From the NCBI GenBank assembly GCA_000004695.1, contig CM000150.2, positions 3,232,001 through 3,296,000 on the forward strand: a DNA stretch of 64,000 nucleotides, given 5' to 3'. Below are positions 45,192-64,000 of this stretch, piece after piece. The DNA is from Dictyostelium discoideum (Eukaryota). The notes below the pieces were generated by a model. The model saw only the letters and a program-made list of their open reading frames with translations. It did no database searches and was not told where the DNA came from. How positions within the stretch are numbered: position 1 is the first letter of the stretch; each line of letters begins with the position of its first letter. A program made the translations under genes and the position numbers.

Positions 45192-45242
<51 letters not shown>

Positions 45243-45935
45243 GTTTATATAATATATATTTTCTTTTTATTTATATTTTTTATTTTTTTTTTTATTTTTT
45301 TTTTTTATTATTTTTTTTGTCGATAAAGATATTATTTTTAAAAAAACTATGTACAATTTTCTTTTTTGTTTGCGTTTAAATAATTATTTGGAAATGCTTT
45401 GGTAGTTTTTGATGTTTCCTTCTTCAAACTAAATTTATTTTTTTTTTTTTTAAAAAAAAGAAAAAAATTAATCACCAAAACGAACCTTGGATTGTTGGTG
45501 CTTCATTTCTATTTATCACTCGTATTTGTTTTGTTTATTTTTTGGTTCGATGATTTGGTTGGGTGGTTTTTTTTTTTTTCTTTTTTTTTTTCTTTTTTTT
45601 TTTTCTTTTTTTTCTTTTTTATTTTCTTTTTTTTTTTTTTTTCTTCTTAGAAAAATAAATAATATATCTTGGGAAAAAATAAAAAAAATAAAAGAGGTTT
45701 TTTGGTAAAGTTGGGTGTTTCGAAACACAGTTGTTTTCTATTTTAAAAATAAATATGTTGAGAAAAAGTTGTATTTGTTGTTTTAATTATGATATTGTTC
45801 TTTTAGTTTTATAATTGCTGGTATTGTAGTAGTTATTTATTGTGTTATCATTTTAATTTGTTTTATTTTTTTAGATATTTGATTTTCATTTTTTAGATTT
45901 TTGATTTAGTGAGGAGTTTTTTTTTTTTTTTTTTT

Positions 45936-45967
<32 letters not shown>

Positions 45968-45989
45968 GTGGAAGGTGGTTTTTTTTTGT

Positions 45990-46012
45990 TTTGTTTTTGT
46001 TTTTGTTTTTGT

Positions 46013-46043
<31 letters not shown>

Positions 46044-46074
46044 GTTTTGTTTTGTTTTGTTTTGTTTTGTTTTG

Positions 46075-46105
<31 letters not shown>

Positions 46106-46112
46106 TTTCATT
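45990..46112. repeat. (GTTTTT)n then (GTTTT)n microsatellite, about 120 bp.
   Basis: Direct inspection. The overlapping ORFs 45893..46111 and 45935..46120 are low-complexity artefacts. Confidence 0.8.
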
Positions 46113-46151
46113 TGAAATGAAAATTATATAATATTTATGCTGTTTTCTCCA

Positions 46152-46568
46152 TTATTTCGTATTGGATGAAGTTGGCATATTGTTGTTACTATTTATATTA
46201 ATACTATTGATATTCATATTCATACTATTGCTGCTGCTGTTGTTATTGTTGCTGTTATTATTGTTGCTGTTATTGTTGTTATTATTAGTATTATTATTGT
46301 TATTGTTATTGTTATTATTATTATTAGCTATATCCATTCCATCTAAATCGATTGGTTCATTACTACTACCACCAGCTGAGTTTGTTGCTGCTTGTGCTTT
46401 TAATTCTTCTTCTTTAAGCTCTCTTTCATATTTAATATAAACCTCTGACTGATTATAAATTGAATCTACCCATCCACTAATTGATGTACTTGTCCAATAT
46501 TTACCTGGATTTAAGTTTTGTAATGAAACCGGTCTGAGAGGTGTATGTACAGTGCCTGAATTCATCAT
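46152..46568 (-). CDS. Hypothetical 138-aa protein with a structured N-terminus (about 75 aa) followed by a poly-Asn/Ser tail.
   Basis: True ATG ATG start at 46568; MMNSGTVHTPLRPVSLQNLNPGKYWTSTSISGWVDSIYNQSEVYIKYERELKEEELKAQAA..., then N/S low complexity. Single exon. No family recognised. Confidence 0.4.
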   Translation of the reverse strand: MMNSGTVHTPLRPVSLQNLNPGKYWTSTSISGWVDSIYNQSEVYIKYERELKEEELKAQAATNSAGGSSNEPIDLDGMDIANNNNNNNNNNNNTNNNNNNSNNNNSNNNNSSSNSMNMNINSININSNNNMPTSSNTK

Positions 46569-46986
46569 TTATATTTTTCTTTCTTTTTTTTTTAATTGTA
46601 GTTTTTTTTTTTATATTTTACTTTTTTTATTATTTTTTCTTTATTTTGTTTTATTATTCTTTTTTTTTCTTACTAAAAAAAAAAAAAAAAACTATCGTTA
46701 TTACTACAACTAATTTCTTTTTTAAATTATAGTACTTATTTAATTTTTACTATATTTTCGTTATAAATTTGTGTATTGTGGATTTGTTGTTGTTGTTGTT
46801 GTTGTTATTGTTATTATGAGGTTTTTAAAATATTTTATATTTATTTTTATTTTTATTTTTTTTATTTTTTTTATTTATTTAATTACACATATACAAAAGA
46901 TAGATATGACTACACATACACAAAATACACAATAAAATTACTTTATAATTTTTATTTTATTTTATTAAGTGATATCTAGTAGTAGG

Positions 46987-47031
<45 letters not shown>

Positions 47032-47590
47032 AAAAAATTTTAAAAATAAAAAAAAAAAATGAAAACAAAAAATTTTTGAAAATATTTTTTTTTTATTTTT
47101 TTTTAATTTTTTTTTTTTCAATCTTTCTCAATTTTTCTATAAAGAAACCACTTTAGGATTAGTTACTTATTAATAGTAATTCCAAAAAAAAAAAGCTTAT
47201 TTGACTTTTTAATTTTTTTTTTTTTTTTTTTACCTTTTTATATATTAATTTTTTTTTTTTTTTCTTTATTTTTTTAATTTTTTTAATTTTTTTTTTTTTT
47301 TTTAATTTTTTTTTTTTAACATTGGGAATGAATTTTAAGAAAGTCGTTTGGAATGAATTTGAAGAAAGTCGTTTGAAAAAAAGTATTATTTACATTATTT
47401 TTATTTATTTTTCTTTGCAAGATATTATTTTTAAAACTTTTTTTTTTTTTTTTTAAAAAGATGGCAAATTCCAAATGTTGTAAAATGCTAATTTTTTACA
47501 AAATAAAATTTCAGTTTTTTACCACATTTAGGTTTGTTGTGTTTTTTAAAAAAATTTATTATGATTTTTTTTTTTTTTATAAACTGCTAT

Positions 47591-47992
47591 TTAGCAATGA
47601 TGATGACGACTGTGGCAACTTGAAGAAGGATAAGACATCATATAAGTAGAAGTTGGATATTGTTGATAGTATTGTGGGTATACATAACCTTGTTGTGGTT
47701 GAGGATAGCTACCATATTGAACAGCACCTGGATATCCAGCTACTGCTTGTTGTTGTTGTTGTTGTTGTTGTGGATAGACATATCCTTGTTGTTGAATTGG
47801 TTTCATTGGTTGAAGTGGTGTAGTAGCATTTGAAGTTGATGGTTGATTTAATAATACAGCAATATGTGGTGGTAAAGTCCAATGAGCACTCTTTGTGTTG
47901 TGATCAACATAATATTGTTTACCACTTTGATCTTGTCTAATTACCCATCCACTTGGTAATCTTGGATCTGTCCATTCTGGTCCTTGATATTT

Positions 47993-48074
<82 letters not shown>

Positions 48075-49286
48075 GGTGCAAATGGTTGTGGTGGTTGTGG
48101 TTCAATTGGTTGTGGTTGAGATTGCGATTGTTGTGGTACAAATGGTTGTGATTGTTGTGGTACAAATGGTTGTGATTGTTGTGGTTCAAATGGTTGTTGT
48201 GGTGATTGTGATACAAATGGTTGTGGTTGAGATTGTGATTGTTGTGGTATAAATGGTTGTTGTTGTGGTGGTGATTGTTGTATAAATGATTTTGGTGGTG
48301 ATTGTGAAATGGTATTAATATTTGTAGTATTATTATAAACTGGTTGTGGTTGTGATTGTTGTTTAATTGGATAGTTTGTACCATTAAATGATTGAATACC
48401 AGTTTCAGTATGAACACAATCTTGTAATTGAATAAATTGAGAAACATTTTCAAAGTAAATTTCACCTTCCATTATACCAACGACTTGATTTTGGTGGATG
48501 ATTGGCTCAACAAATGAAACCATCTTTTGATCTACACCACCATATGATGGGCCAGTGATTTGCTTTGGATCGAAAACAATTGAACTTAATGTAATTGTAA
48601 CTTGACCTAATGATGGGTCAGTCTCACCATTATAATTTTTATATTGTAAAATGTTGAATATAATTGGACAAATCATCAACTCTTTCAATCCTATAGTATA
48701 AATGATTTGGTCAATATCTTCCCATATCAAATTATTTGATTTTTTTGTTTTTAATGTTTTTGTAACTTTTTGAAGTCTAAAAATTTCAAAAAAAAAATAA
48801 TAATAATTAATATTTAGTTTTTCAATAAATAAACTAATAAATAAAAAAACAAATAAAACACTTACTTTGAAGAATTTAAAATATAATAAAATAAATATTT
48901 TTCAATTGATTGATCGGTTGAAGTAATTGGTAAAGCACCAGCATAATATGAAGTTTTAAGGTTTCTAAATGTTAATTTAGTCTCTAAAAATTCAGACATT
49001 TCCAAGTCGAATTCAATTGTTCCATTAGCAACACCTTTATTTCTTAAAACTAATTTATGATGAACTGGACCATTTAAGACTGTAAAGAAATCAATAGAGC
49101 AACCACCAATAAGATTATCGCCGCCAATAACACATGAATCATAACAATCAATTTCAACTTTTTTATTCTTTAAATCTTGATCTTTCATTATTGGTATATG
49201 AAATGTTTGCTCAAATTTCCATGTTGGTGTAATACTTTTACTAATTGATTCAGTTTTAAATTTTTTAAATTGATCAAATTTTAACT

Positions 49287-49324
<38 letters not shown>

Positions 49325-49482
49325 TAGTTTTCTAAATAACTTTTTTTAAAAAATAAATATATATAATAAAATAATATTACTTTAACATATGGATCAATAT
49401 TTATATTATTTGCATTATGATTTTCTTTTTTTAAGGATAAATCATAAGCTTTTATATTATGAATTTTAATTGAATAATGCAT
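47591..49482 (-). CDS. C2-domain + WW-domain protein with long poly-Gln tracts. Exons on the minus strand 49482..49381, 49284..48866, 48776..47591; about 568 aa.
   Basis: C2 domain: MHYSIKIHNIKAYDLSLKK...IDPYVK|LKFDQFKKFKTESISKSITPTWKFEQTFHIPIMKDQDLKNKKVEIDCYD...TIEFDLEM. WW domain: LPSGWVIRQDQSGKQYYVDHNTKSAHWTLPP. P/Q-rich linkers. The introns are GTAATA...AAAAG (phase 0) and GTAAGTG...TTTTTAG (phase 2). Confidence 0.6.
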
Positions 49483-49488
49483 TTTATA

Positions 49489-49497
49489 TCTATATAT

Positions 49498-49552
<55 letters not shown>

Positions 49553-49556
49553 TGTA
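49489..49556. repeat. (ATTT)n microsatellite, about 17 units.
   Basis: tatttatttatttattt... immediately upstream of the C2-WW gene start. Confidence 0.8.
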
Positions 49557-49815
49557 TTTATTTATTAAAATAAAAAATTTTATTGATGTGAAAAAAAGAA
49601 AATAATTCGAGAAACTTTTTTTTTATAAAAAATAAAAAAAAAAAAAAAAAAAATTTTTTTTAAAAATTAATGATTATATAAAAATTAAACTCAAAAATTT
49701 AGGAGAGGAATTTCCAAAATCATATCGATTTTATAGGAAGTTTTAAAAAGCAAAAGGAGAGTTTCAAAATCATATTGATTTTATAGGAAGTGCTTAAAAG
49801 CAAAAAAACAAGCTT

Positions 49816-49846
<31 letters not shown>

Positions 49847-49949
49847 TATAAAATAAAGTAATATCTTTTTATATTTTTAACTTTTTTTTTTTTTTTTTTT
49901 TTTTCAAATACATAAATTATTTTTTATTATAATCACTAGAATTTTACGC

Positions 49950-49992
<43 letters not shown>

Positions 49993-50507
49993 ATAATTAT
50001 AATAAAAATAAAAAAAATATTTTTTTTGATGATGTGTAGTTGGTTATAATATATTTAACCCTTTTTTTATAATTATTAAATTATTCTTACCATTTTTTTT
50101 TTTTTTATTATTAACTATTTTAAAAAAGGGTTGCCAAAGAGAACAAATAAAATCTCAGAATGATCATTTAATAATTTTTTTTTTTTATCCTTTTAAAATT
50201 TTTAACCACAAACTTAAAATAGAAATAATTTGTATTTTAGTTAAATTGTATTTTTTTTTTGTTTTTGTTTAACAAAAAGTTGTCAAACCAATTTTTTTTA
50301 TTTTATTTTTAATTTTTTTTTTTTTTTTTAAACAAAAAAAAAAAAAAAAAAAAAAAACTATAAAAAGGAATTTTTTTGATTGTTTTTTTTTATTTTTATT
50401 TTTATTTTTATTTCATTATAAATCATAAAAAAAAAAATATATATATAACTCTTTTTAAAAAAAAACTAAATTCACATTTTATAATAATAATATTTAAAAA
50501 AAAAGAA

Positions 50508-50723
50508 ATGAATAAATTAATTGTTTTTATTTTATTGGTTGTCTCATTAGCCTGCGTTTTCGGTGAATTAGAAGGTGTCCAACCTCAAGTTTGTAAAATG
50601 AAAGCAAATGATTGCAACAGAATGCACCAAGCTTATTTATATGCAACCCAAAATGGTGATTGGAAAGATATGCCAAAAGATGCCCAAGAATTGTTCTTAT
50701 CAGTTTATAAAAATAATTGTTAA
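50508..50723 (+). CDS. Small secreted 3-Cys peptide, paralogue A. The precursor is 71 aa and the predicted mature peptide about 51 aa.
   Basis: ATG at 50508; signal peptide MNKLIVFILLVVSLACVFG. The mature peptide ELEGVQPQVCKMKANDCNRMHQAYLYATQNGDWKDMPKDAQELFLSVYKNNC* has three Cys. Confidence 0.45.
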   Translation: MNKLIVFILLVVSLACVFGELEGVQPQVCKMKANDCNRMHQAYLYATQNGDWKDMPKDAQELFLSVYKNNC

Positions 50724-51384
50724 ATTTGGAATTCCAATTCTTTTATTTTTAAAAAAAAATACAAAAAAATAAAAAATAATAATAAAAAGTTAAATTTCAT
50801 GATATTATAATTATTTACCATATTTATATTATTTTTGTTTGTTTTTTTTATTTTTTTAATGTTTTTATTGCATTAATTCATGTCCTCCACAAAATTATAA
50901 TTTATTATAATATTTTTTAGTTTGTTTTTTATTTTTTTTTTATTTTTTTTTTTGAAAAATATCTATTGGCAATTCTATAATCATTCTTTGAAATTGTAAA
51001 ATAATATTCAAAAAAAATTACAATCGTGATTGAATTTATTAAAAAAGTAATAACCAAAAAAAAAAAAAAAATAATTATAACTTTTATTTTATAACCACAA
51101 CACACATTTTTATTTTTTTATTTATTTTTTGAAATTTTGAATAATTATTTTATCCTTTCAAAATAGTTTTTTTTTTGTATCTTATCCCAAAATAGTTAAT
51201 AATGGTTAATTATTTTTATTTTTATTTTTATTTTCATTTTTTATTTTCCTTTTTTTTTTTTTTTTATTATTTAAAAAAAATTGTATAAAAAAAAAAAAAA
51301 AAAAAAAGTTATTATCAATTACATTCTTAAACAAAAAAAAAAGAAAAAAAGAAAACAAAGAAAACCTAATTTTTAAAAAAAAAA

Positions 51385-51606
51385 ATGCAAAAAATTATTT
51401 TAGTTATATGCTTAATTTTATCATTGGTATTTATTTCTTATGGAGAACAAACTTCGAGCGCAAAATGTTACATGAGACTCGATGATTGTGAAAAGATGAG
51501 AAAGGCTAGAGAAAAATCAATTGCTGATGGATCAATTAATCATATGCCAGCTCAAGGACGTCAATTATTTGAGGAAATCTATGCAAACAACTGTCCAAAA
51601 GCTTAA
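51385..51606 (+). CDS. Small secreted 3-Cys peptide, paralogue B. The precursor is 73 aa.
   Basis: Signal peptide MQKIILVICLILSLVFISYG. The mature peptide EQTSSAKCYMRLDDCEKMRKAREKSIADGSINHMPAQGRQLFEEIYANNCPKA* shares the C-x-M-x(3-4)-DC ... MP-x-[DQ]-x(2)-[EQ]LF-x(3)-Y-x-NNC pattern with 50508..50723. Confidence 0.45.
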   Translation: MQKIILVICLILSLVFISYGEQTSSAKCYMRLDDCEKMRKAREKSIADGSINHMPAQGRQLFEEIYANNCPKA

Positions 51607-51740
51607 TAAAAATTAAATTCAAAAGAAATAAACTTAAAAAAAAAAAAAAAGATTGAAAGTTCTAATTTTAAAATAAATAATAGTTTTAATTTTTGAAAAA
51701 GAAAACAAATATATTTTATTAATAAAATAATAATATTTAC

Positions 51741-51798
<58 letters not shown>

Positions 51799-52112
51799 GA
51801 TTTTCAATTTATTTTTTTTGATTATTTATAAACCACCACCCATGGTTTATTATTATAAAATTTTTAAAAGAAAAAGTGAGGAAAGTCCAAATTTGTAATA
51901 GCATTTATCCAATCAAATTATTTAATCCTACACTAAAAAAAAAAAAAAAAAATTATAATATTTCATAAATATTATTTTCAAATAATTGATGGTTTTTTTT
52001 TTTTTTTTTTTTTGATTGTTCAAAAATCCTTTTAAAACAAATACAAATAATATACGTAGTCAATCCCTAACGAACATTTTTTTATATTATTTTTTTTTTT
52101 TTTATTTAATCA

Positions 52113-52143
<31 letters not shown>

Positions 52144-52731
52144 CCAATGAAATTTAAATGATTAACAAATAGTAGTTGTCTGAAAGCACGAAAACCCTCA
52201 TTGTTTTTTATTGATATTGTTATTACATTTTTTTTTTTTTTTTTTTTTTTGATTTTAAAATCATATGATTCTTAAGAATTCTGCACTGGTGGGGGAAATT
52301 ATTTTTTTTTTTTTTTTTTTTTTTTAATTGATAAAAAAAACAGTGTTTATTCGTAAAGTAGATATTTATGAGGCCTAACCATAAGAATTACAACTGTTCG
52401 ATTTGAAATAAAATTCCAATATCCATATTCATATCTTTTTATTTGAAAAAAAAAAAAAATTTTAAAAAATAGACTAACTGAAAATTTTAAAAAATATGAA
52501 AAATAATACTAGTAATGGAGATTATAAACAAATCAAAAAACAATTGTTTGATAACCTTTTTTTTTTTTTTTTTAAATAAAATATTGAAAAATAAAAATAA
52601 AAATAAAAATAAAAATAAAAATAAAATAAAATAAATAAAAATAAGACAAATTAAAATAAAATAAAATAATAATATTAATAATAAAAAAAAAAAAAAAAAA
52701 AGATTTTAAAAATATTAAAAACAAAAAAATA

Positions 52732-52737
<6 letters not shown>

Positions 52738-52808
<71 letters not shown>
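52738..52808. repeat. (AAAT)n microsatellite, about 18 units, inside a gene-free AT-rich region of more than 3 kb.
   Basis: aaataaataaataaat... run. The minus-strand ORF 52572..52832 (FIYL repeats) is an artefact. Confidence 0.8.
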
Positions 52809-52818
<10 letters not shown>

Positions 52819-54302
52819 GCAAATAAAAACAAATTTAAATTATTTTACTAAAGGTAGTATATGTACAATTTTTTTTAAAGATTCCTTTTTTCCATTTTTT
52901 TTAAAAGATTGTAGATGAAAAATAAACCTTTTTTTTAGTTTTTTCAGAACTACAATGTTTACCTTTTTTTGTTTTGCATTTTTTTGTGTATTGTTTAATG
53001 TTTAATAATAGTTACTATTTTCATATCATCCGATATCTAAGAAAATCAATTTTGGAATTGTTTTTAAAGATTTGTTTTTTTTTTTTTTGATAACTTCCTT
53101 TATTTATTTATTTTTTCCATAAAAAAACAAATTTAAAAAAATATTAAATTAAAATAAAAAAAAAAACATTTTTATATCTAAAAAACTATATTTTTTTTTA
53201 TTTTCTTTTTTTAATTTTTCTTTTTTAATTTAAAAAAAAAAAATAAAAAAAAAAAAAAATATATTTAATCCATTTTTTTTAAATATAAACGTTTTTTATA
53301 ACCTACTAATAAAGATATAGCGAGTGAGTACTGACATTTCATATTTTATAGTTTTTTAAATATATTTTTTTTTTTTATCACACTAACTTTTTTTTTTTTT
53401 TGATCATTTTTTTTTTTCTCATTTGTAAAATATTTTTTTCAATACACATATACAAATAAACAGACAAAATCCTTATATATAATAATATAACAGAAAAAGT
53501 ATTTTTTATTTTTTTTTTTCTTTTTTTTTATTTTATTTTAATTTTCTTAATTTTTTTTTAAATAATTTATTATTTTTATTATAATCACCATTGTTTTTTT
53601 ATTTTTTTTATTATTTTTTTTTATATTTAATTTTTTTTTTTTTATTTTTATTTAATATAAAAAATTTAATAAATTTATTAAATTATAATCACACATTTTT
53701 TTATTTTTTAATTTTAAATGGTAAGAGGATATTTAGAAATATCAAAATTCGCTATTGTTTAGGTTCATTTTCATACTTTTTTTTTTAATTGAATTTCATC
53801 TCAAAAATTAAAAAATTTTTTTTTTTATTGTTTCTATTCAAATAATTAAAAATTTTTTTTTTTTATTTTTTTTTTTATTTTTTTTTTATTTTTTTTTTTT
53901 GCATAAATCAAACAATTGTTTAATGTTTGCAAATATTTAGTCATTGTGTGAAATTGGGGAATGTGTTTTTTCAAATTTTTTTTTTATATGTTTAAAAAAA
54001 AAAATAATCTCAAAGGTAATAATAAATAATAAATAATAAATAATAAATAATAATAATAATAATAATAATAATGATAATAATAATAATAATAAAAATAAAA
54101 AAATAAAATAAAAATAAAATTATATAAACAGAGTCAAACCCAAATCTTATTTAAAAAGATTGTGTTTGATATTTTATTTTTATTTTATTTTATTTTTTAT
54201 TTTTAAATTATTTATTTTTGTCAATGACAATTTGTGGTTTTGTGTGTGTGGGATTATGTAGAGAATTTTTTGGGTGTTTATGTGTGCGTTTGATAGTGCA
54301 AT

Positions 54303-54333
<31 letters not shown>

Positions 54334-55104
54334 CTTTCTCTATCATTCAATTGTTTTAAAATTATGATGAAAAAGGATAATAATAAAAAAATAGTGCGAA
54401 TAAATAGAAAAAATAAAAAATAAAAAAATAAAAAAATAAACATTCAAACATAATAGAGGTTCTATCAGTTTATTTATTATAATTAGTTTGAACCCATCTA
54501 TGTATTTTTAAAAATTAATTTCCAAAAAAAAAAAATTAAAAAATAATAATATTAATATTAAAAAAAAAAAAAATAATATATTTATTATTAAAAAAAAAAA
54601 ATAATAATAATAATAGTAGTAATAATAATAATAATAAATATTTATACTCGCTCCAATATTGTATGTGTAAACCAAATATAAAGAAATTTCCATCTCCTAT
54701 TACTAAATTTAAATTTTATATATTTTAATATACTTCTTTTTAAATATATTTTTTTTTTTATTTTTTATTGTTATTACCTAATAATTCTAATTTTCAAAAA
54801 AAAAAAAAAAAAAAAAAAACAAATTCAAAACCACTGTACCAATTATCTAAAAAATTATTTAAATTTATATTTTATTCAATATTTAAAAAAAAGTTTGTTT
54901 TAAAAGTTATATTATTTTTATTAATAAAATTTTTTTTTTTTTATAATCCAACTGAAAATAAAATAATTATAATAAAAAGTTTCTAAATCTCCTTTTTTTT
55001 TATTATTTTTTTAAAACCAAAAAAAAAAGAATAAAAATATTCATATTTATTTTCATATTCCAATAATAATAATAATATATTATACCAAAATAATAAAAAA
55101 AATC

Positions 55105-55136
<32 letters not shown>

Positions 55137-55287
55137 CCCTTAATTTTATTTTTATTTATACATTTAAACTAATTTTATTAACTTAATTAAATTAAAAATT
55201 TTTTATAAATAATTTTTAAAAAGAAAAAAAAAAATAGTAATATTAAAAATAAATATATTTAGTGAAATATTTAGAAATTAATCAAAA

Positions 55288-57147
55288 ATGGTTATAATGG
55301 ATCATAATACCAATATATCAGGGTCTCCAACATCTTCCCAGGTACTTTCTAATGGAATTCAATCAATTCAAAGTGGGATTTCAAATAGAGTTCAATCTAT
55401 TCAATCTCTGCCGCCACAAATGTATATATTAAAAGAAAGAATTGTAAATAAAAATAATTATCATATAATGGATAGTAATAATAATAATAATAATGTAAAT
55501 AGTAGTAATAATAGTAATAATAATAATGTTGGATTAAAGGACTATGGAGAAGGCGGAATTTATAGTTTCGAAGATGATAGTCATAGATCTGCCTCTCCAT
55601 CAAGATTAAGATCACTCTCTGCTCCTGGTTCAACAAGTACAACAACTGCACCAGCAACATGTACAGGTACAAAGAATCAACGTGAACTATTTCAACAATC
55701 AATTGATTCATTAGCTTCAAAATATAATAATGGTAATAACAATAATTTAAACAACAATAATAATAATAATAATATAAATAATAATAATATAAATAATAAT
55801 AATAATAATAATAATAATATAAATAATAATAATAATAAAGATATAAATAGTAATAATAAATCATCATTAAAAAATAGTGGTGGTAGTGGTAGTTGTGGTA
55901 GTGATAGTGAACAATTAAATTGTAGAATTAGAGATTCAACTGATGAAATGTATGAAAGTGAAGAACTTGCAAATATTGATGACGAAATGATTAGAATGAG
56001 ATCTTTATCACTAACATCATTTGAAACATTTAAAAAGATTGAAAGAGAAAAGAATATTTACTCTCCATCTTCCACTAGAGATGATGATGTTTTATCACCA
56101 TATGAAATGATGTCACATTTGGAGTATCAAGAAAGATTAGAAAGAGAAGAAATGGAAAGAATGGACAAGAATAATGTTATCATATCACAATCATCAAGCG
56201 ATGGTTATACTGGTAATCAAGTTCAATGTGAATCAACATTAACATCGTCATCTTCAATAAAATCATCATTATCATCATCTTCCTCACTTAATATTAGTAC
56301 TTCAATTCCAAGAATTAGTGTATCATCTTCAAATTCTTTCTCTGGTTCACCTTCAACTTGTTCGATTTCTCCACCAAAATCATCATCATCTTCTTCAAAG
56401 TCAAAAAATAGTTTAACTGGTAGTTTAAATGGTACAAGTGTATTAATTCAACAACAACAACAACAAAACCATGGTGGTGGTAATAATAGTCCAATTACAA
56501 GTATTACCAATTCACCATCAACTCGTTCTTCACCATTATTCAAAAGGTCATTAACTTCAAATACTACACTTTCAAAATCATCTACTAAATTACCATCTGT
56601 TGAAAAGGAACAACAGCCAACTCAACAAGCACCTTTATCACCACAAGTGCAACAACAAGCTCAACAATTACCACCACAAGTTCATGCTCAATTACAAGCT
56701 CAAATTCAACAACAACAACAACAAAATATTCCAAAAAAAGTACAACCACTTGTAAAATCATTATCTTCACAAACTATTTTAAAGGAACAACAAAATAAGA
56801 AACAACCAATTGCAGCCGTTGCCTCGCCATCAACAACTTCTTCATCATTAGCACAAAATAGACCATCAACTCCAATTCAAATGTCATCATCACCAAATTT
56901 AAATCCATTAAAAAAGTTAACAAATAAACTTTCATTATCAACTCATTCATTACCACAATCACCTCCACCACAAACATCATCGAATACACCAACTTTGACA
57001 CCAAAAAATAAACTTGTCAAATGTCCATCTGGTAATTCAATTTTACCAAATAAAAAATCAATTTCTCAATCACAACAATCTCAACCTGTAAATAATTCAT
57101 TTCAATTGGAATTAAAACAACATTTGAAATTGAAAAAAGAACAAAAT

Positions 57148-57184
<37 letters not shown>

Positions 57185-57621
57185 TAGAAAATAATAATAA
57201 TAATAATAATATTATTGAAAATATTAATAATAATAATACTTTAAGTAGAAAAGAAAGATATGAATTAAAGAAACAAAATATTCCAAAACCAATGGATGAA
57301 CCAAAAGGATCATCAGTAGTTGAATCAATTGTTAAAATTACATTTCAATTTCCATCCACTGGTAAAAAAGTTAATAGATATTTTAATGCAGATTGTAAAG
57401 TTGAAGAATTAAAAAATTATATTGAATGGTTTGCATACCAAGAACCTCAATTATTCGATTCATCATTTAAATTATCTGATGATTCTCATTTAAAAATTGT
57501 AGATTATAATATTGAATATACAATTTTACCAACAAAATTTGTAATTTCAAATTTTGATGTTACATTTAAAGATTCTGGTTTCGTTCCAAAATCAAATATA
57601 ATTAATATTTCACTTGTATAA
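55288..57621 (+). CDS. Low-complexity (N/S/Q-rich) protein with a probable C-terminal UBX-like domain. Single exon, 777 aa.
   Basis: The C-terminal ~90 aa read VKITFQFPSTGKKVNRYFNADCKVEELKNYIEWFAYQ...LKIVDYNIEYTILP, which resembles the UBX beta-grasp with its F-P-x-x-G motif. The rest is homopolymeric N, S and Q. The domain call is tentative. Confidence 0.45.
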
Positions 57622-57698
57622 TAAATAATAATAATAATAATAAAACCAAAATAATAAAATAAAATTAAAATTAAAATTAAAAATAAATCGTCTTTTCT

Positions 57699-59350
<1,652 letters not shown>

Positions 59351-59491
59351 CTGTCGGTTTTTTTTTTTTTTATTTTTAATCAAAAAAAAAAAAAAATAAA
59401 AAAATTAAAAATATTAAAAAAAACACCCACTATTGGATTTTCACAAGATATTACTTTTTTTTTTTTTTTTTTTTTTATTTTTCTAAAATTA

Positions 59492-60844
59492 ATGGATTAT
59501 TACCAAAGTGAATTAATCAAACTATTTCAAAAGAGTAATGAAATTTATAAAGATAATAATTTTGAAACTAAATTAAATGAAAAGAATTATAAATTTTTAT
59601 TAGTTTATTTAAATTCAATACATTCAATATTAAAAATTGATATGAAATTAAACATTTATCAATATATCAATATCGAATTTAAAGAATTAATTTTAATATC
59701 AAAAGAATTAATGAAAATTGTATTTGATATAATTCATTCTGGAACATGGAATAATATTGATATTCTATTTAAAGATTTATTTGCATATTCTTCAATTCTA
59801 TATATTTACTCCTTTTTTTTAATTCAATTTAAAAATATAAAAGTTGATAATAATAATAATAATAATATTAATATTAATATCCCAAACCCTATAAAGAAAA
59901 TAATTTTAAAAAAATTAGATTTAGCATTAATATTTGGTGATAAATTATTTAATCAAGTTATAAATCAAATTATTAATTTAATATCAAATAATAATAATAA
60001 TAATAATAATAATTTTTTAAATAATTTTAAAAATGAAAATTATAATAATAATAATGAAAATGAAATAATATTAAATAAAGAAAAACTAATTAAAAGGATT
60101 AGTAGACCACCAAGTTTAAATGAATTTAAAAATGAATATATGATAAAAGGAAATCCATGTGTTATTGAAAATTTAATGAAAGAATGGCCATGTTTTAATG
60201 AAAGAAATTGGAGTGATTTAAATTATTTAAAAAATGTTGCTGGATCAAGACTGGTTCCAATTGAAATTGGTCCAAATTATTTACATGAAAAAATGAAACA
60301 AAAATTAATAAATTTCAATAAATTTATTGATGAATATATAATTTCGAAAAATAGTGATGATGATAATGATGATATTGGTTATTTAGCTCAAACAAAACTA
60401 TTTGAACAAATTCCTCAATTAAGAAATGATATTTTAATACCAGAATATTGTAAAATTAAAATTGGATGTGGTGATGATGATAATGATAATAATAAAGAAG
60501 ATAATGTTGAAATTAATGCTTGGTTAGGTCCAAAAGGAACAGTGACTCCACTTCATTATGATCCAAAACATAATTTTCTTTGTCAAATTGTTGGTAGGAA
60601 ATATATTAAACTATTCTCACCAAAGGAATCAAATAATTTATATCCTCATTTAAACTCAAAATTATTTTTTAATACTAGTATGGTTGATGTTGAAAATCCA
60701 GATCATTCAAAATTTCCATTATTTAAAAATTGTGATTATATTGAATTAATTTTAAATGCTGGTGAAATTCTTTATATTCCACCCACATATTGGCATTTTG
60801 TTAAATCTTTAAGCCAAAGTTTTTCAGTAAGTTTTTGGTGGTAA
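59492..60844 (+). CDS. JmjC-domain protein, a JMJD5/KDM8-like 2-oxoglutarate/Fe(II) oxygenase; about 450 aa.
   Basis: GTVTPLHYDPKHNFLCQIVGRKYIKLFSP...NTSMVDVENPDHSKFPLFKNCDYIELILNAGEILYIPPTYWHFVKSLSQSFSVSFWW aligns with the JMJD5 cupin, with HxD...H metal ligands. The ORF-track start at 59333 is a low-complexity leader, and the first ATG in front of MDYYQSELIKLF is at 59492. Confidence 0.75.
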   Translation: MDYYQSELIKLFQKSNEIYKDNNFETKLNEKNYKFLLVYLNSIHSILKIDMKLNIYQYINIEFKELILISKELMKIVFDIIHSGTWNNIDILFKDLFAYSSILYIYSFFLIQFKNIKVDNNNNNNININIPNPIKKIILKKLDLALIFGDKLFNQVINQIINLISNNNNNNNNNFLNNFKNENYNNNNENEIILNKEKLIKRISRPPSLNEFKNEYMIKGNPCVIENLMKEWPCFNERNWSDLNYLKNVAGSRLVPIEIGPNYLHEKMKQKLINFNKFIDEYIISKNSDDDNDDIGYLAQTKLFEQIPQLRNDILIPEYCKIKIGCGDDDNDNNKEDNVEINAWLGPKGTVTPLHYDPKHNFLCQIVGRKYIKLFSPKESNNLYPHLNSKLFFNTSMVDVENPDHSKFPLFKNCDYIELILNAGEILYIPPTYWHFVKSLSQSFSVSFWW

Positions 60845-61314
60845 TTTTTTTTTTTTTTTATTTTTTTTTTTTTTTTTATTTACCAGATCAGCAAATTTTA
60901 TAATTTAAAAAAATAAAAAAAAAAGATATTCCCCTAATTTTTCAAAAGACTTTTTTTATATTTAATTTTTTTTTTTTTTTTTTTTTTAAAAGTCAACGAT
61001 TAAGCATGACAACGCCCAAAATTTTACATTTTTTTTTAATATTTTTTTTTTTATATTTTTTTTTTTTATTTTTTTGTCGTTTATTAATAAAAAAAAAGTT
61101 TAGGCGATTGTTATCTCAAAAAAAAAAAAATAATAAAAAAAATAAAAATACCAATAAAATTTTATTTTGTAATCTCAAAAAATAAAAAACTAAAATTGTT
61201 TATATATTAACCTATACTCACATATATATATATATATTTGCACATATACCAACAATATAAACGTTAAAATTTATTTTTATTAGAAAAAGGATAAATAAGA
61301 AAAAAAAAAAAAAA

Positions 61315-64000
61315 ATGGTAAACTATTTCAACTTATTAGATGAATCAGATGAAGAAGAAACAAATACAACTGTTAAAAAAGATTTAACAGTAGAAACAAC
61401 AGCACCAACAACAACAGCAGTTATTGAAAAAGAAAATAAAGTAAACAACAAAGTTGAAACTAGTACAGCAGCAACATCCGCTTCTTCTTCAACAACAGGA
61501 GGTATTTATGTACCACCACTTAGAACAAGTTCAGAGGCAACAAATAAAGCACCACCTTCACAACATATTGAAATTCAATTTGATGTAAACAAATTTAATT
61601 CAGAAGAAACATTACCAGAGAATTGGATTCTTTGGTACGACACAAAAAAGAATTCCCCACAAGAAGGAGAAAATAATGAATATCTTCAAAATGTTGAAAA
61701 AATTGGTTCTTTTAATTCTTTAAAGGTAATTTATTTTTTTTTTAATTTTATTAATTTTTGCTTATACTAATTATTTACTTTTTTTTTTTTTTCTCTCCTC
61801 TGTCCTTTCTCGTAGCAATTCAAAAATATGTGGGAAAGTTTAAAAACACCATTAGATGTAATTGGTAATATAAGTATTTTCAAAGAAGGTATTGAACCAG
61901 CTTGGGAAGATCCAAAAAATAAAGATGGTGGTAAAATTGTAAGTTCAAAAAATAAAAAAAAAAAAAAAAAAAAAATCGCTAACTTTTTTTCTCTTCTTTA
62001 ATATTACAACTATTATAGACTATAAATTATCTTAAAGATAATGGCGACTTCAATTTTTTATTAAATGCATGGTTCACTTTATTCACAACAATTGTTTTTA
62101 GCACATTCGAAAATTATGAACAATCAGTATGTAACATATTTCTAATCTCACCCTACCCCCTCCCTTTCTTCATCTCTTTTCTACCTTTTACACCACTCAT
62201 TTCCTTCCTTTCCTACTATCCCCTTTTTTATTTTTTTATTTTCAAATATTAATAAAAACTTTTTTTTTTATTTTTTTTTATTTTTTTTTATTTTATATAT
62301 TTATTAATTTCAAAAAAAAAAGAATGGTATTGTTTTATCAATTAGAAGTTGGGGTGCAAGTATTCATTTATGGAATAATAGTTCAGAGAATGATAAAGTT
62401 CAATCAATTAGAGATGTATTCCAAAATATATTATTTGTTAAATATTCAAAGTTTTCACCACATAAAACAGCACTCGATATGAATAAGAATAAAGATCCAA
62501 ATACTAAACAAATAAATAAGAATAAGAAAAGAGATGAACATGGATTCACAATTAAACCAGTCAATACACTATTATCAGTACATCCAACTTTTTCAGGTGC
62601 ATATGAAAAGCAATGGGTATTACCAGAGAATAATAAACCAGATAAATCATTAAATATTATTAACACAAATACTAAACCAAAGAAATCTTCACCATATACT
62701 GTAAACACTGAAGAAAGAAAAGAATCACCTGATATAATAAATGATTCAAATAATATAATAAATAATAACAATAATAATAATAATAACAATAGCAACAATA
62801 ATGAAAATAATAATAATTCAGATAATATAGAAAATGAACAATCTGAACCAATTCCTGAAATTCCATCTGGTGTTAATGCATGGTCAACTGGTATTTTATT
62901 AGGTCAACCAAAAGTTGAAGAATCTCAAAAACAACTCGATGAACAACCATTAGTTGTAAAAGAAGACGAAAAAGAAAATGAAAAAGAAAAAGAAAAAGAA
63001 AAAGAAAAAGAAAAAGAAAAAGAAAAAGAAAAAGAAAAAATTATTGAAAAGAAAGAATCAAAATCAGCTTATTCAAATGCATGGGGTAATAGTAAAATTG
63101 AACAACCAACAACCACACCATCCAATAATAATAATAATAATACCACTAAATCATCAAATACACCAACTCCAATGATTAATACAAATATTGAAATTCCAAC
63201 TGGCGCAAATGCATGGGCAACTGGTAAATTATTAGTTAAACAAGAGGTTGTTGAAGATAAACAATCATTAAATAATGTTGATGGTGCTGCTGTAGCTGCT
63301 TCCACCACCACTATTACTCCTCCACCAGTCGTCACAACTGAAAATAAAGAAAAGAAAGGAAAAACAGAAAAGAAAGAAAAAGAAAATAAAGCACCAACTG
63401 TAGTAATCACAGAAAAGAAAGATTCTTCTCAATCACAAGAAAAACCAATTAAGAGAGTAAGTTCAAAAGAAGTTTTACAAGAAAAACCAATAAAAAGAGT
63501 AAATTCAAAAGAAGTATTACAATCACAACCAACTGAATCATTCTGGGAAGAACCAACACCAATTACTGTTGTTCAACAAACTCAAGTACCAACTAAAGTA
63601 CCAAAGAAAACTATTGAACCAACCCCAACTCCAACACCAACTCCAACCCCAACTCCAACCCCAACTCCAACTCAAACAACAGCTTCAACCTCAACACCAA
63701 CTCAAGTTGATACCTTTTCTAAAGTTGTAAAGAAAGATAAATCATACAAACAAACCAAAACAACAGTTTCATCATGGGGTAGTCCAACTAGTATCGCTGA
63801 TTTAATCGCTTCTCAACCTGAACCAACAACAGTTATTGTTGCTCCAGTTGCAACTGAAGTTACAATTCCAACTCCAACTGCTGCACCTATCTCCACCAAC
63901 ACAGCAACTACTGTCACCACCACCACTACTACCACCTCCCCTACCAATACAACAGCCATTACCCCTACTGCCACTGTTGTAGCAACAGTTGAAAGTGAAG
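61315..64000 (+). CDS. eIF4E-family cap-binding protein with a long repeat-rich C-terminal extension. The 5' part is in the window: exons approx 61315..61725, 61816..61938, 62019..62126, 62323..>64000. It continues beyond the window.
   Basis: eIF4E core: LPENWILWYDTKKN...VEKIGSFNSLK|QFKNMWESLKTPLDVIGNISIFKEGIEPAWEDPKNKDGGKI|TINYLKDNGDFNFLLNAWFTLFTTIVFSTFENYEQS|NGIVLSIRSWGASIHLWN, with the Trp cap-stacking residues conserved. There are three GTAAxT...AG introns. The open frame continues for more than 1.6 kb with (EKEK)n, (PT)n and repeated G[VA]NAW[SA]TG[IK]LL motifs. Confidence 0.6.

Follow-up and report, generated by a model that had tools for sequence, protein, structure and literature searches.

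A predicted tail-anchored eIF4E-family protein with a 4EHP-like cap pocket and a tryptophan-motif linker in Dictyostelium discoideum

The DNA analysed here, called the window below, comprises 64,000 nucleotides (nt) of Dictyostelium discoideum (contig CM000150.2 of assembly GCA_000004695.1, forward-strand positions 3,232,001 to 3,296,000). At its right-hand end, in the very AT-rich region 61315-64000, an eIF4E domain is followed by an extension whose frame has not closed by the last nucleotide. The locus thus raises the question of what an eIF4E with so long an extension is: whether it is one gene, where it ends, and what the extension could be for. The reading that we favour, with a probability of roughly 0.55, is that the gene encodes a membrane-tethered cap-binding protein of 977 amino acids (aa) resembling 4EHP. 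Everything said below about its function is inferred from the sequence and from models built on it.

Conceptual splicing gave a single gene on the plus strand with a start codon at 61315, four exons in the window and three phase-0 introns with a GC content of 16-22%. The in-window product is a partial protein of 773 aa, as the frame is unclosed at 64000. The fourth exon is open for 559 codons within the window, and the other five frames contain 11 to 82 stop codons. From the base composition the chance of exon 4 staying open was about 3e-19, and none of 2000 shuffled sequences remained open. The opposite strand has no long open reading frames (ORFs) over the gene.

The continuation past the edge was found on a public contig (L001; JBTAPE010000039.1 of assembly GCA_054883475.1), which was located with the exact sequence of a 777-aa ORF lying upstream. 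The contig is 99.57% identical to positions 45224-64000 of the window over 18.8 kb, with 5 mismatches and 21 gap openings. None of the small indels lies in the eIF4E gene, and over 61315-64000 there were no mismatches in 2686 nt. An independent gene call on this contig (16024-19323) gave 977 residues and agrees exactly with our model in its start codon, all three introns and frame. The stop codon, which was to be sought past 64000 according to a first-pass annotation of the window, lies at window-equivalent position 64614, 614 nt beyond the edge, and 204 residues fall outside the window. A whole-protein search of a 5.8-billion-cluster collection returned no protein with at least 90% identity, and the exact 977-aa sequence is absent there; the protein of this species has apparently not been deposited.

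When 1.84 billion cluster representatives were searched exhaustively with a profile, only four end-to-end matches emerged (970-1116 bits). These full-length orthologues come from Tieghemostelium lacteum (808 aa), Cavenderia fasciculata (923 aa), Acytostelium subglobosum (849 aa) and an environmental source (818 aa). The next match reached 137 bits and covered the eIF4E domain alone; outside that domain no further match was present among the representatives. Database names for the orthologues go no further than 'eIF4E family protein' or 'hypothetical protein' and make no mention of a membrane anchor.

All five proteins are collinear. They begin with M(V)NYFN[LVI]L and an acidic run, in which M1, N3, Y4, F5, N6, L8, D12 and E13 are invariant, and the eIF4E core follows. 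Next come an LLSV motif (three of the five proteins), a first copy of a motif designated NAW-A ([IV]PE[IV]P-x-G[VM]NAWSTG[IL]L[LF]G) and then, in either order, a second NAW-A copy and a motif designated W-B ([AVG]W[SG]..[NK], 4/5). These are followed by [FL]WE[EDQ], S-x-W-(4)-[SV][IV]..[LM][IM]ET[IV] (designated W-D), [DE]EW...KPKK and LIR.L.VE.P[LI].YP.P. The last element is a C-terminal transmembrane (TM) helix with a KD17 hydropathy of 2.6-2.9, which stops 1-7 residues before the end. The blocks are separated by low-complexity linkers that cannot be aligned; the whole disordered linker measures 500-700 aa in the orthologues and about 690 aa here. The orthologue alignment passes all three splice junctions without indels.

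These data bear on the alternative, named in the first-pass annotation as the finding that would break up its one-gene model, that the core ends at a donor soon after about 62650, with a separate gene or a different splice accounting for the ORF downstream. Nothing was found in favour of it, GT dinucleotides being present there as everywhere. The residues on both sides of 62650 (the LLSV motif at 62560-62616 and NAW-A copy 1 at 62851-62910), and everything downstream, are collinear with the orthologues. An environmental contig of 2756 nt (L002) carries the 818-aa ORF unbroken across the three intron positions, from MVNYFN to the TM helix and with short flanks like untranslated regions (UTRs); it looks like a spliced full-length mRNA. 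As the orthologues and this contig keep core and extension fused, as does the public gene call with its single 977-aa product, the two-gene scenario is not supported. The length of the open frame and the empty opposite strand argue against it as well, and we give it next to no credence. The region 61315-64000 and its continuation are almost certainly one gene with the architecture of eIF4E core, linker and C-terminal helix; the fusion of core and extension had been proposed in the first-pass annotation from the open frame.

The 204 residues beyond the edge contain the conserved motifs EKDEWISIEKKPK and LLIRNLLVEEPLDYPSPIKP, a stretch rich in Asn and Lys, and the hydrophobic segment SLIMNLVAVVSVLVLGFIL. 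This is the sole segment of the protein with a KD19 above 1.6; it reaches 2.63 at aa 954-972 of 977 and is followed by KYLFV and the stop. A single TM segment at the extreme C-terminus was also present in the four orthologues. The N-terminus (MVNYFNLLDESDEEE) resembles neither a signal nor an anchor, and in the orthologues KD17 there did not rise above about 0, as judged by hydropathy only. A terminal hydrophobic helix combined with a non-hydrophobic N-terminus is the signature of tail-anchored membrane proteins, and the 977-aa protein is very probably one of them. The earlier suggestion of a localising family member is borne out to the extent that the anchor predicted here, which is encoded beyond the edge, would localise the protein.

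A different topology is conceivable from the (PT)n block and the T-rich linker, which could form the T/P/S-rich, mucin-like stalk of a type I surface or luminal glycoprotein whose eIF4E-like domain would be non-cytosolic; several relatives do open with a signal-peptide-like LLxLLSSVLVSS. In the five proteins, however, the N-terminus is MVNYFNLL plus the acidic run, with no h-region, and the position of the TM helix close to the C-terminus is typical of tail anchors. A cap pocket under selection, moreover, makes sense in the cytosol only. The glycoprotein topology is therefore very improbable.

The core was assigned to the eIF4E family by Pfam IF4E (PF01652) at residues 100-253 with E = 9.8e-33 and 113.6 bits (gathering score 28.7); the four orthologues scored 98-108 bits. 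No other Pfam domain was found in the 977-aa protein or in nine relatives. The best sequence matches among solved structures were chains of human 4EHP/eIF4E2 (7.7e-19), and the identity of the core to solved eIF4Es is only 24-29%. A first AlphaFold2 run on the 773-aa product with 5 sequences was poor, with a mean predicted local distance difference test score (pLDDT) of 40 and 50-83 in the core. A second run on aa 85-417 with a 51-sequence alignment gave mostly 85-97 for the core (about aa 95-275). When this core model was compared with the PDB by Foldseek, eIF4E and 4EHP structures were retrieved with E values of about 1e-14 and target-normalised TM-scores of 0.77-0.86, 4EHP being the top match. 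The curved beta-sheet backed by three helices that characterises the eIF4E fold is thus present in the model.

For single residues we used the numbering of human eIF4E, in a sequence that we take to be correct: its Trp positions are as expected and its core equals the database protein P0099 bar one residue. Among the cap-stacking and m7G-recognition (7-methylguanosine) positions, W56 is replaced by Tyr, and W102, E103 and W166 are retained. This Y/W/E/W combination occurs in 5/5 orthologues, and together with R157 it is invariant in the five and in the wider tail-anchored clade described below. At the positions that contact the cap phosphates (R112, R157 and K162) the protein has Lys, Arg and Ser; 4EHP likewise has Lys at R112 and lacks K162. 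W43 is kept, and W113 is Ile here and Tyr in the orthologues. On the dorsal side W73, which docks the YxxxxL-hydrophobic helix of eIF4G and the 4E-BPs, is replaced by Lys in each of the five orthologues, and L131 and L135 of the dorsal helix are Phe and Thr. The fold described as canonical in the first-pass annotation is accordingly an eIF4E fold, but not a fully canonical one, given Lys at W73, Ile at W113 and Tyr at W56.

The protein does not belong to Class I, for which W43, W56 and the dorsal W73 were considered; of these only W43 is kept, and the changes at L131 and L135 point the same way. Class II, which includes 4EHP, is defined by W43 changed to Tyr, Phe or Leu and W56 changed to Tyr or Phe (PMC3388326); here Tyr at W56 fits and the retained Trp at W43 does not. 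Formally, the residue pattern matches Class III (W43 kept, W56 changed to Cys or Tyr). Most descriptions of this class concern chordates, and the eIF4Es of protists are said to fall outside classes I-III (PMC3388326). Judged by these residues, the cap pocket is conserved in the style of 4EHP and the docking surface for eIF4G and 4E-BPs is not conserved. The balance of this evidence leans towards a core that binds the m7G cap, and to about the same degree we expect that the protein does not use eIF4G in the canonical manner.

The substitutions W113 to Ile, K162 to Ser and W73 to Lys, together with the divergence of the core from solved eIF4Es, could also mean that the eIF4E-like domain has lost cap binding and serves as an interaction or structural module of a membrane scaffold acting through the linker motifs. 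The stacking and N7-recognition residues are nevertheless invariant in the five orthologues and the wider clade, as would be expected from purifying selection on cap binding, and human 4EHP, which has the same Tyr and Lys substitutions, binds m7GTP (PDB 2jgb). Loss of cap binding is in our view unlikely, although it is the most serious of the competing explanations.

Of the systems compared, 4EHP/eIF4E2 (human; PDB 2jgb and 5nvk) is the closest in sequence and structure. Shared features are Tyr at W56, Lys at R112 and the retention of W102, E103, R157 and W166, and the expected common traits are cap binding without the building of eIF4F and the logic of a competitor or repressor. 4EHP itself is soluble, has a length of about 245 aa, keeps the Trp equivalent to W73 and is recruited through the canonical motifs of GIGYF1/2 and 4E-T. 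In contrast, the present protein has Lys at W73, keeps the W43 that is replaced in Class II, and comprises 977 aa including a W-motif linker and a C-terminal anchor.

Membrane receptors for mRNA or ribosomes are LRRC59 (tail-anchored), p180/RRBP1 and SYNJ2BP of the endoplasmic reticulum (ER) and mitochondria. They are single-pass or tail-anchored proteins with a large cytosolic part that engages mRNA or ribosomes, and the 977-aa protein would work alike. None of them is known to recognise the cap or to contain an eIF4E domain, and they are not related to it in sequence. Long extensions outside the domain are also known from the trypanosomatid EIF4E3, EIF4E4 and LeishIF4E-6, which are protist eIF4Es outside classes I-III (PMC3388326). 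Those extensions are N-terminal or internal loops, and the word 'transmembrane' occurs 0 times in that paper, whereas the extension described here is a C-terminal linker followed by a TM helix.

The extension is rich in K, T, N, E, S and P, and its pLDDT was below 50 throughout in both AlphaFold2 runs. The sequence NAW occurs three times against an expected 0.03. The first-pass annotation had counted three copies of one motif: two of them are NAW-A (aa 391-410 and 502-521), and the third (aa 461-477) is the different W-B motif. The pair PEIPSGVNAWSTGILL and IEIPTGANAWATGKLL scored 58 in alignment, while shuffled sequences scored 37 on average and 52 at most (0/300 reached 58). In NAW-A copy 1 the residues P, E, P, G, N, A, W, S, T, G, L and G are invariant across the five species. 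The (KE)n and (PT)n blocks noted previously are real as well, being encoded by (AAAAGA)13.7 and (CCAACT)n. The linkers of the dictyostelid orthologues contain 1.0-1.65% Trp, compared with a median of 0.12% in the linkers of other tail-anchored eIF4Es, and nearly all invariant linker residues of the five species adjoin a Trp. Short linear binding motifs under selection would be expected to cluster in this way. That the W motifs form a binding module, as had been suspected, is plausible from this pattern, because the motifs are conserved in an otherwise unalignable linker.

A scan of JGI (Joint Genome Institute) metagenome contigs with the degenerate DNA pattern for P-x-G-V-N-A-W-x-T-G-x-L matched only the contig of orthologue P0002, and use of NAW-A in other proteins was not indicated by it. 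PAM2/PAM2w, LIR, FFAT and GW motifs were considered as the identity of the W motifs, and none fits the invariant positions. A general likeness exists to GW182/TNRC6, which have W-motif disordered regions: a lone Trp flanked by small residues is conserved within fast-evolving low-complexity sequence. NAW-A differs from the GW/WG repeats by its fixed hydrophobic tail (TG-x-L-L); the resemblance is no more than that, and a link to Argonaute or CCR4-NOT is not indicated.

Within the extension a helix was predicted solely in the W-D motif, at aa 706-709. The helical tail of this motif (SIVQLIETI, NVLRLMETV or SIADLIAS, the last at 63790-63813) resembles the conserved linker helix of P0007-type relatives (GLLHQLMTEVTEAP, GMLHQLIAEVTEAP; linkers of P0017, P0030 and P0010). 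The element, too short for statistics, may belong to linkers throughout the clade.

The tail of NAW-A, W-[SA]-T-G-x-[LF]-[LFC], has the spacing of a 4E-binding motif, with Trp in place of Tyr and Thr-Gly in the middle, and does not conform to canonical YxxxxL-hydrophobic. It could therefore be asked whether the protein is a membrane-bound initiation factor or an eIF4E trap, in which the NAW-A linker recruits canonical eIF4E, or eIF4G in a non-canonical way, for localised translation or for sequestration as by 4E-T and the 4E-BPs. All ten NAW-A copies of the five species have Leu or Phe at +5 and a hydrophobic residue (Leu, Phe or Cys) at +6, the motifs are strongly conserved amid unalignable sequence, and a ligand in trans is conceivable with the protein's own dorsal site remodelled. 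On the other hand, the defining Tyr is absent, the invariant Thr-Gly falls where the canonical motif is helical, and AlphaFold2 left NAW-A undocked on its own core; intramolecular docking is unsupported by the models. A trap of this kind appears improbable to us.

For the membrane-tethered, 4EHP-like protein that we prefer, the following mode of action is proposed. The C-terminal helix would be inserted post-translationally into an organelle membrane, leaving about 950 residues in the cytosol. The ER would be the likeliest target, with mitochondria or another organelle possible; the ER was taken as the default because the C-terminal helix is highly hydrophobic. The eIF4E-like domain would grip the m7G cap by a Tyr/Trp sandwich of the 4EHP type, using Tyr at W56, W102, E103, R157 and W166 with Lys at R112. 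The linker of about 690 aa would act as a long flexible tether from which the domain could capture capped mRNAs in the cytosol. With Lys at W73 in 5/5 orthologues and Phe and Thr at L131 and L135, the protein should not assemble eIF4F. The bound cap would be held at the membrane in a non-initiating state and be either withheld from canonical initiation or passed to it or to partners of the W motifs. Docking sites for such partners could be the two NAW[SA]TG-x-L-hydrophobic copies, W-B, FWE, W-D, EEW and LIRNLLVEEPLxYPSP. A cap-binding domain is thus probably tied to an organelle membrane; that the net role is the membrane tethering or the repression of capped mRNAs is put forward tentatively.

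Several observations weigh against this proposal. Cap binding is predicted from residue conservation, and with Ser at K162 and Ile at W113 the affinity for the cap may be low or the ligand may be a different one. For the TM helix, which is encoded beyond the window, a second assembly of the same species was used, and the target membrane is a guess from hydrophobicity. In both AlphaFold2 runs there was no confident contact between a NAW motif and the core, and partners of the motifs were not indicated. The T/P/S-rich linker resembles a mucin stalk, and the signal-peptide-like N-termini of some relatives may mean a different topology in those relatives.

To see how far the architecture extends, the nearest relatives of the core were surveyed. 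A word-indexed search with the core alone gave zero matches, which was judged to be an artefact of sensitivity because the exhaustive search gave 1720 relatives. Among the best 150 of these, 46 have a C-terminal TM helix, taken as a KD17 of 1.9 or more within about 47 residues of the end, and several others lie close to this threshold. The TM-bearing proteins are concentrated in two clades of a crude neighbour-joining tree built from the eIF4E domain. The clade with the 977-aa protein has 51 members, 78% of them TM-bearing; the second has 24 members, 75% of them TM-bearing, and holds a second dictyostelid paralogue family that retains W73. Some of the members without an anchor may be fragments. 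Named TM-bearing members belong to Luapelamoeba, Gocevia, Paradermamoeba, Thecamoeba, Protostelium and Flabellula (Amoebozoa) and to Naegleria fowleri (XP_044559892.1), and many others are environmental transcripts. The second dictyostelid family, represented by Polysphondylium violaceum CYY_001205 (P0005) and D. purpureum XP_003292639.1 (P0123) with 748-808 aa, also combines an eIF4E domain, a long low-complexity linker and a C-terminal TM helix. It differs in that W73 and W113 are kept, W130 is lost and both the NAW/W motifs and the MVNYFN start are missing, and it groups separately with Thecamoeba and Protostelium.

In the full-text literature searched, which covered few subscription journals, no account of a transmembrane or tail-anchored eIF4E was found, and the group appears to be broad and undescribed. 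As a tentative generalisation that we hold at less than even odds, the two clades from Amoebozoa, Naegleria and uncultured protists may represent an ancient class of tail-anchored cap-binding proteins that tether mRNA 5' caps to an organelle membrane. In the dictyostelid branch the docking of eIF4G would in addition have been lost and a Trp-motif platform for partners acquired.

eIF4E proteins are regarded as soluble factors. Where mRNAs are known to be anchored at the ER or mitochondria, the contact is made through nascent chains, through ribosome receptors or through RNA-binding proteins that recognise UTRs or coding sequence, and not through the cap. If the proposal is true, a membrane-fixed cap-binding domain on a leash of about 700 residues would place or silence mRNAs on a different principle. 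Proteins of this predicted kind are present in the genetically tractable dictyostelids and in a human pathogen, Naegleria fowleri. The conserved W motifs offer handles for the identification of partners, and Lys at W73 predicts a clean phenotype, with the cap bound and eIF4G unbound.

Further observations were made on the wider group. In P0010, P0011, P0015, P0016, P0024, P0025, P0047 and P0151 the N-terminus is a conserved hydrophobic, signal-peptide-like motif, [DE][IL]LL[FL]LLSSVLVSS[DE], whose conservation is far above that of usual signal peptides. One 90% cluster contains isoforms with and without this motif (P0151 and P0007, respectively). P0037 (679 aa, environmental) and P0095 (Flabellula baltica) have Trp-rich disordered linkers with 2.5% and 1.8% Trp, with examples such as SSWKGWQKPW, EDFWSS and DWADEDLWDN; W-motif linkers may have arisen more than once in the group.

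The positions of the elements of the gene are compiled in Table 1.

Table 1. Elements of the eIF4E-family gene in the window (positions in nt of the window)
Feature	Position	Strand	Remarks
Exon 1	61315..61725	+	aa 1-137: ATG, N-terminal motif, T/S-rich spacer, eIF4E domain onset from ~61612
N-terminal motif MVNYFNLLDESDEEE	61315-61362	+	within exon 1
Intron 1	61726..61815	+	90 nt, GTAATT..TCGTAG, GC 19%; orthologue alignment unbroken across junction
Exon 2	61816..61938	+	aa 138-178: QFKNMW (Lys at human W73 position), FKEGIEPAWEDPKNKDGGKI (W102/E103 equivalents)
Intron 2	61939..62018	+	80 nt, GTAAGT..TTATAG, GC 16%
Exon 3	62019..62126	+	aa 179-214: LLNAWFTLFTTIV helix (W130 equivalent; F/T at L131/L135)
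Intron 3	62127..62322	+	196 nt, GTATGT..AAAAAG; C/T-rich tract 62145-62243
Exon 4, in-window part	62323..64000	+	aa 215-773: eIF4E domain end (~62439), then disordered extension
R157/W166 equivalents	exon 4	+	in VLSIRSWGASIHLWNN
LLSV motif VNTLLSVHPTFSGAYEKQW	62560..62616	+	aa 294-312; in three of five species
Poly-Asn block	62749..62817	+	(AAT)23
NAW-A copy 1 IPEIPSGVNAWSTGILLGQP	62851..62910	+	aa 391-410
(KE)n block	62956..63039	+	(AAAAGA)13.7 at 62958-63039
W-B motif KSAYSNAWGNSKIEQPT	63061..63111	+	aa 461-477, SNAWGNSKIEQ; distinct W motif, 4/5 species
NAW-A copy 2 NIEIPTGANAWATGKLLVKQ	63184..63243	+	aa 502-521
42-nt tandem duplication	63435..63522	+	EKPIKRV[S/N]SKEVLQ twice; 91% match
FWE motif SQPTESFWEEPTPIT	63523..63567	+	aa 615-629; 5/5 species
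(PT)n linker	63619..63703	+	(CCAACT)n
W-D motif TKTTVSSWGSPTSIADLIASQP	63754..63819	+	aa 692-713; 5/5 species

The KRVNSKE element of the tandem duplication is present in a single copy in orthologue P0002. The C/T-rich tract of intron 3 contains no G and is part of a 190-nt G-free run (62132-62321) with 41 C, and introns 1 and 2 are AT-rich. G-free runs of at least 110 nt are frequent in the window (23 runs); the C richness of intron 3 is atypical.

The upstream neighbour of the gene at 59492-60844 (plus strand) encodes a JmjC/Cupin_8 domain protein of 450 aa according to the public gene call. Farther upstream, at 55288-57621, lies the single-exon 777-aa ORF, for which no Pfam match is on record. 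Between the two, about 45 copies of (ATT)n followed by (CATCTTCTTTTT)n occupy 58225-58430 within a minus-strand ORF (57699-58811); in the neighbouring gene they probably code for poly-Asn and for acidic repeats.

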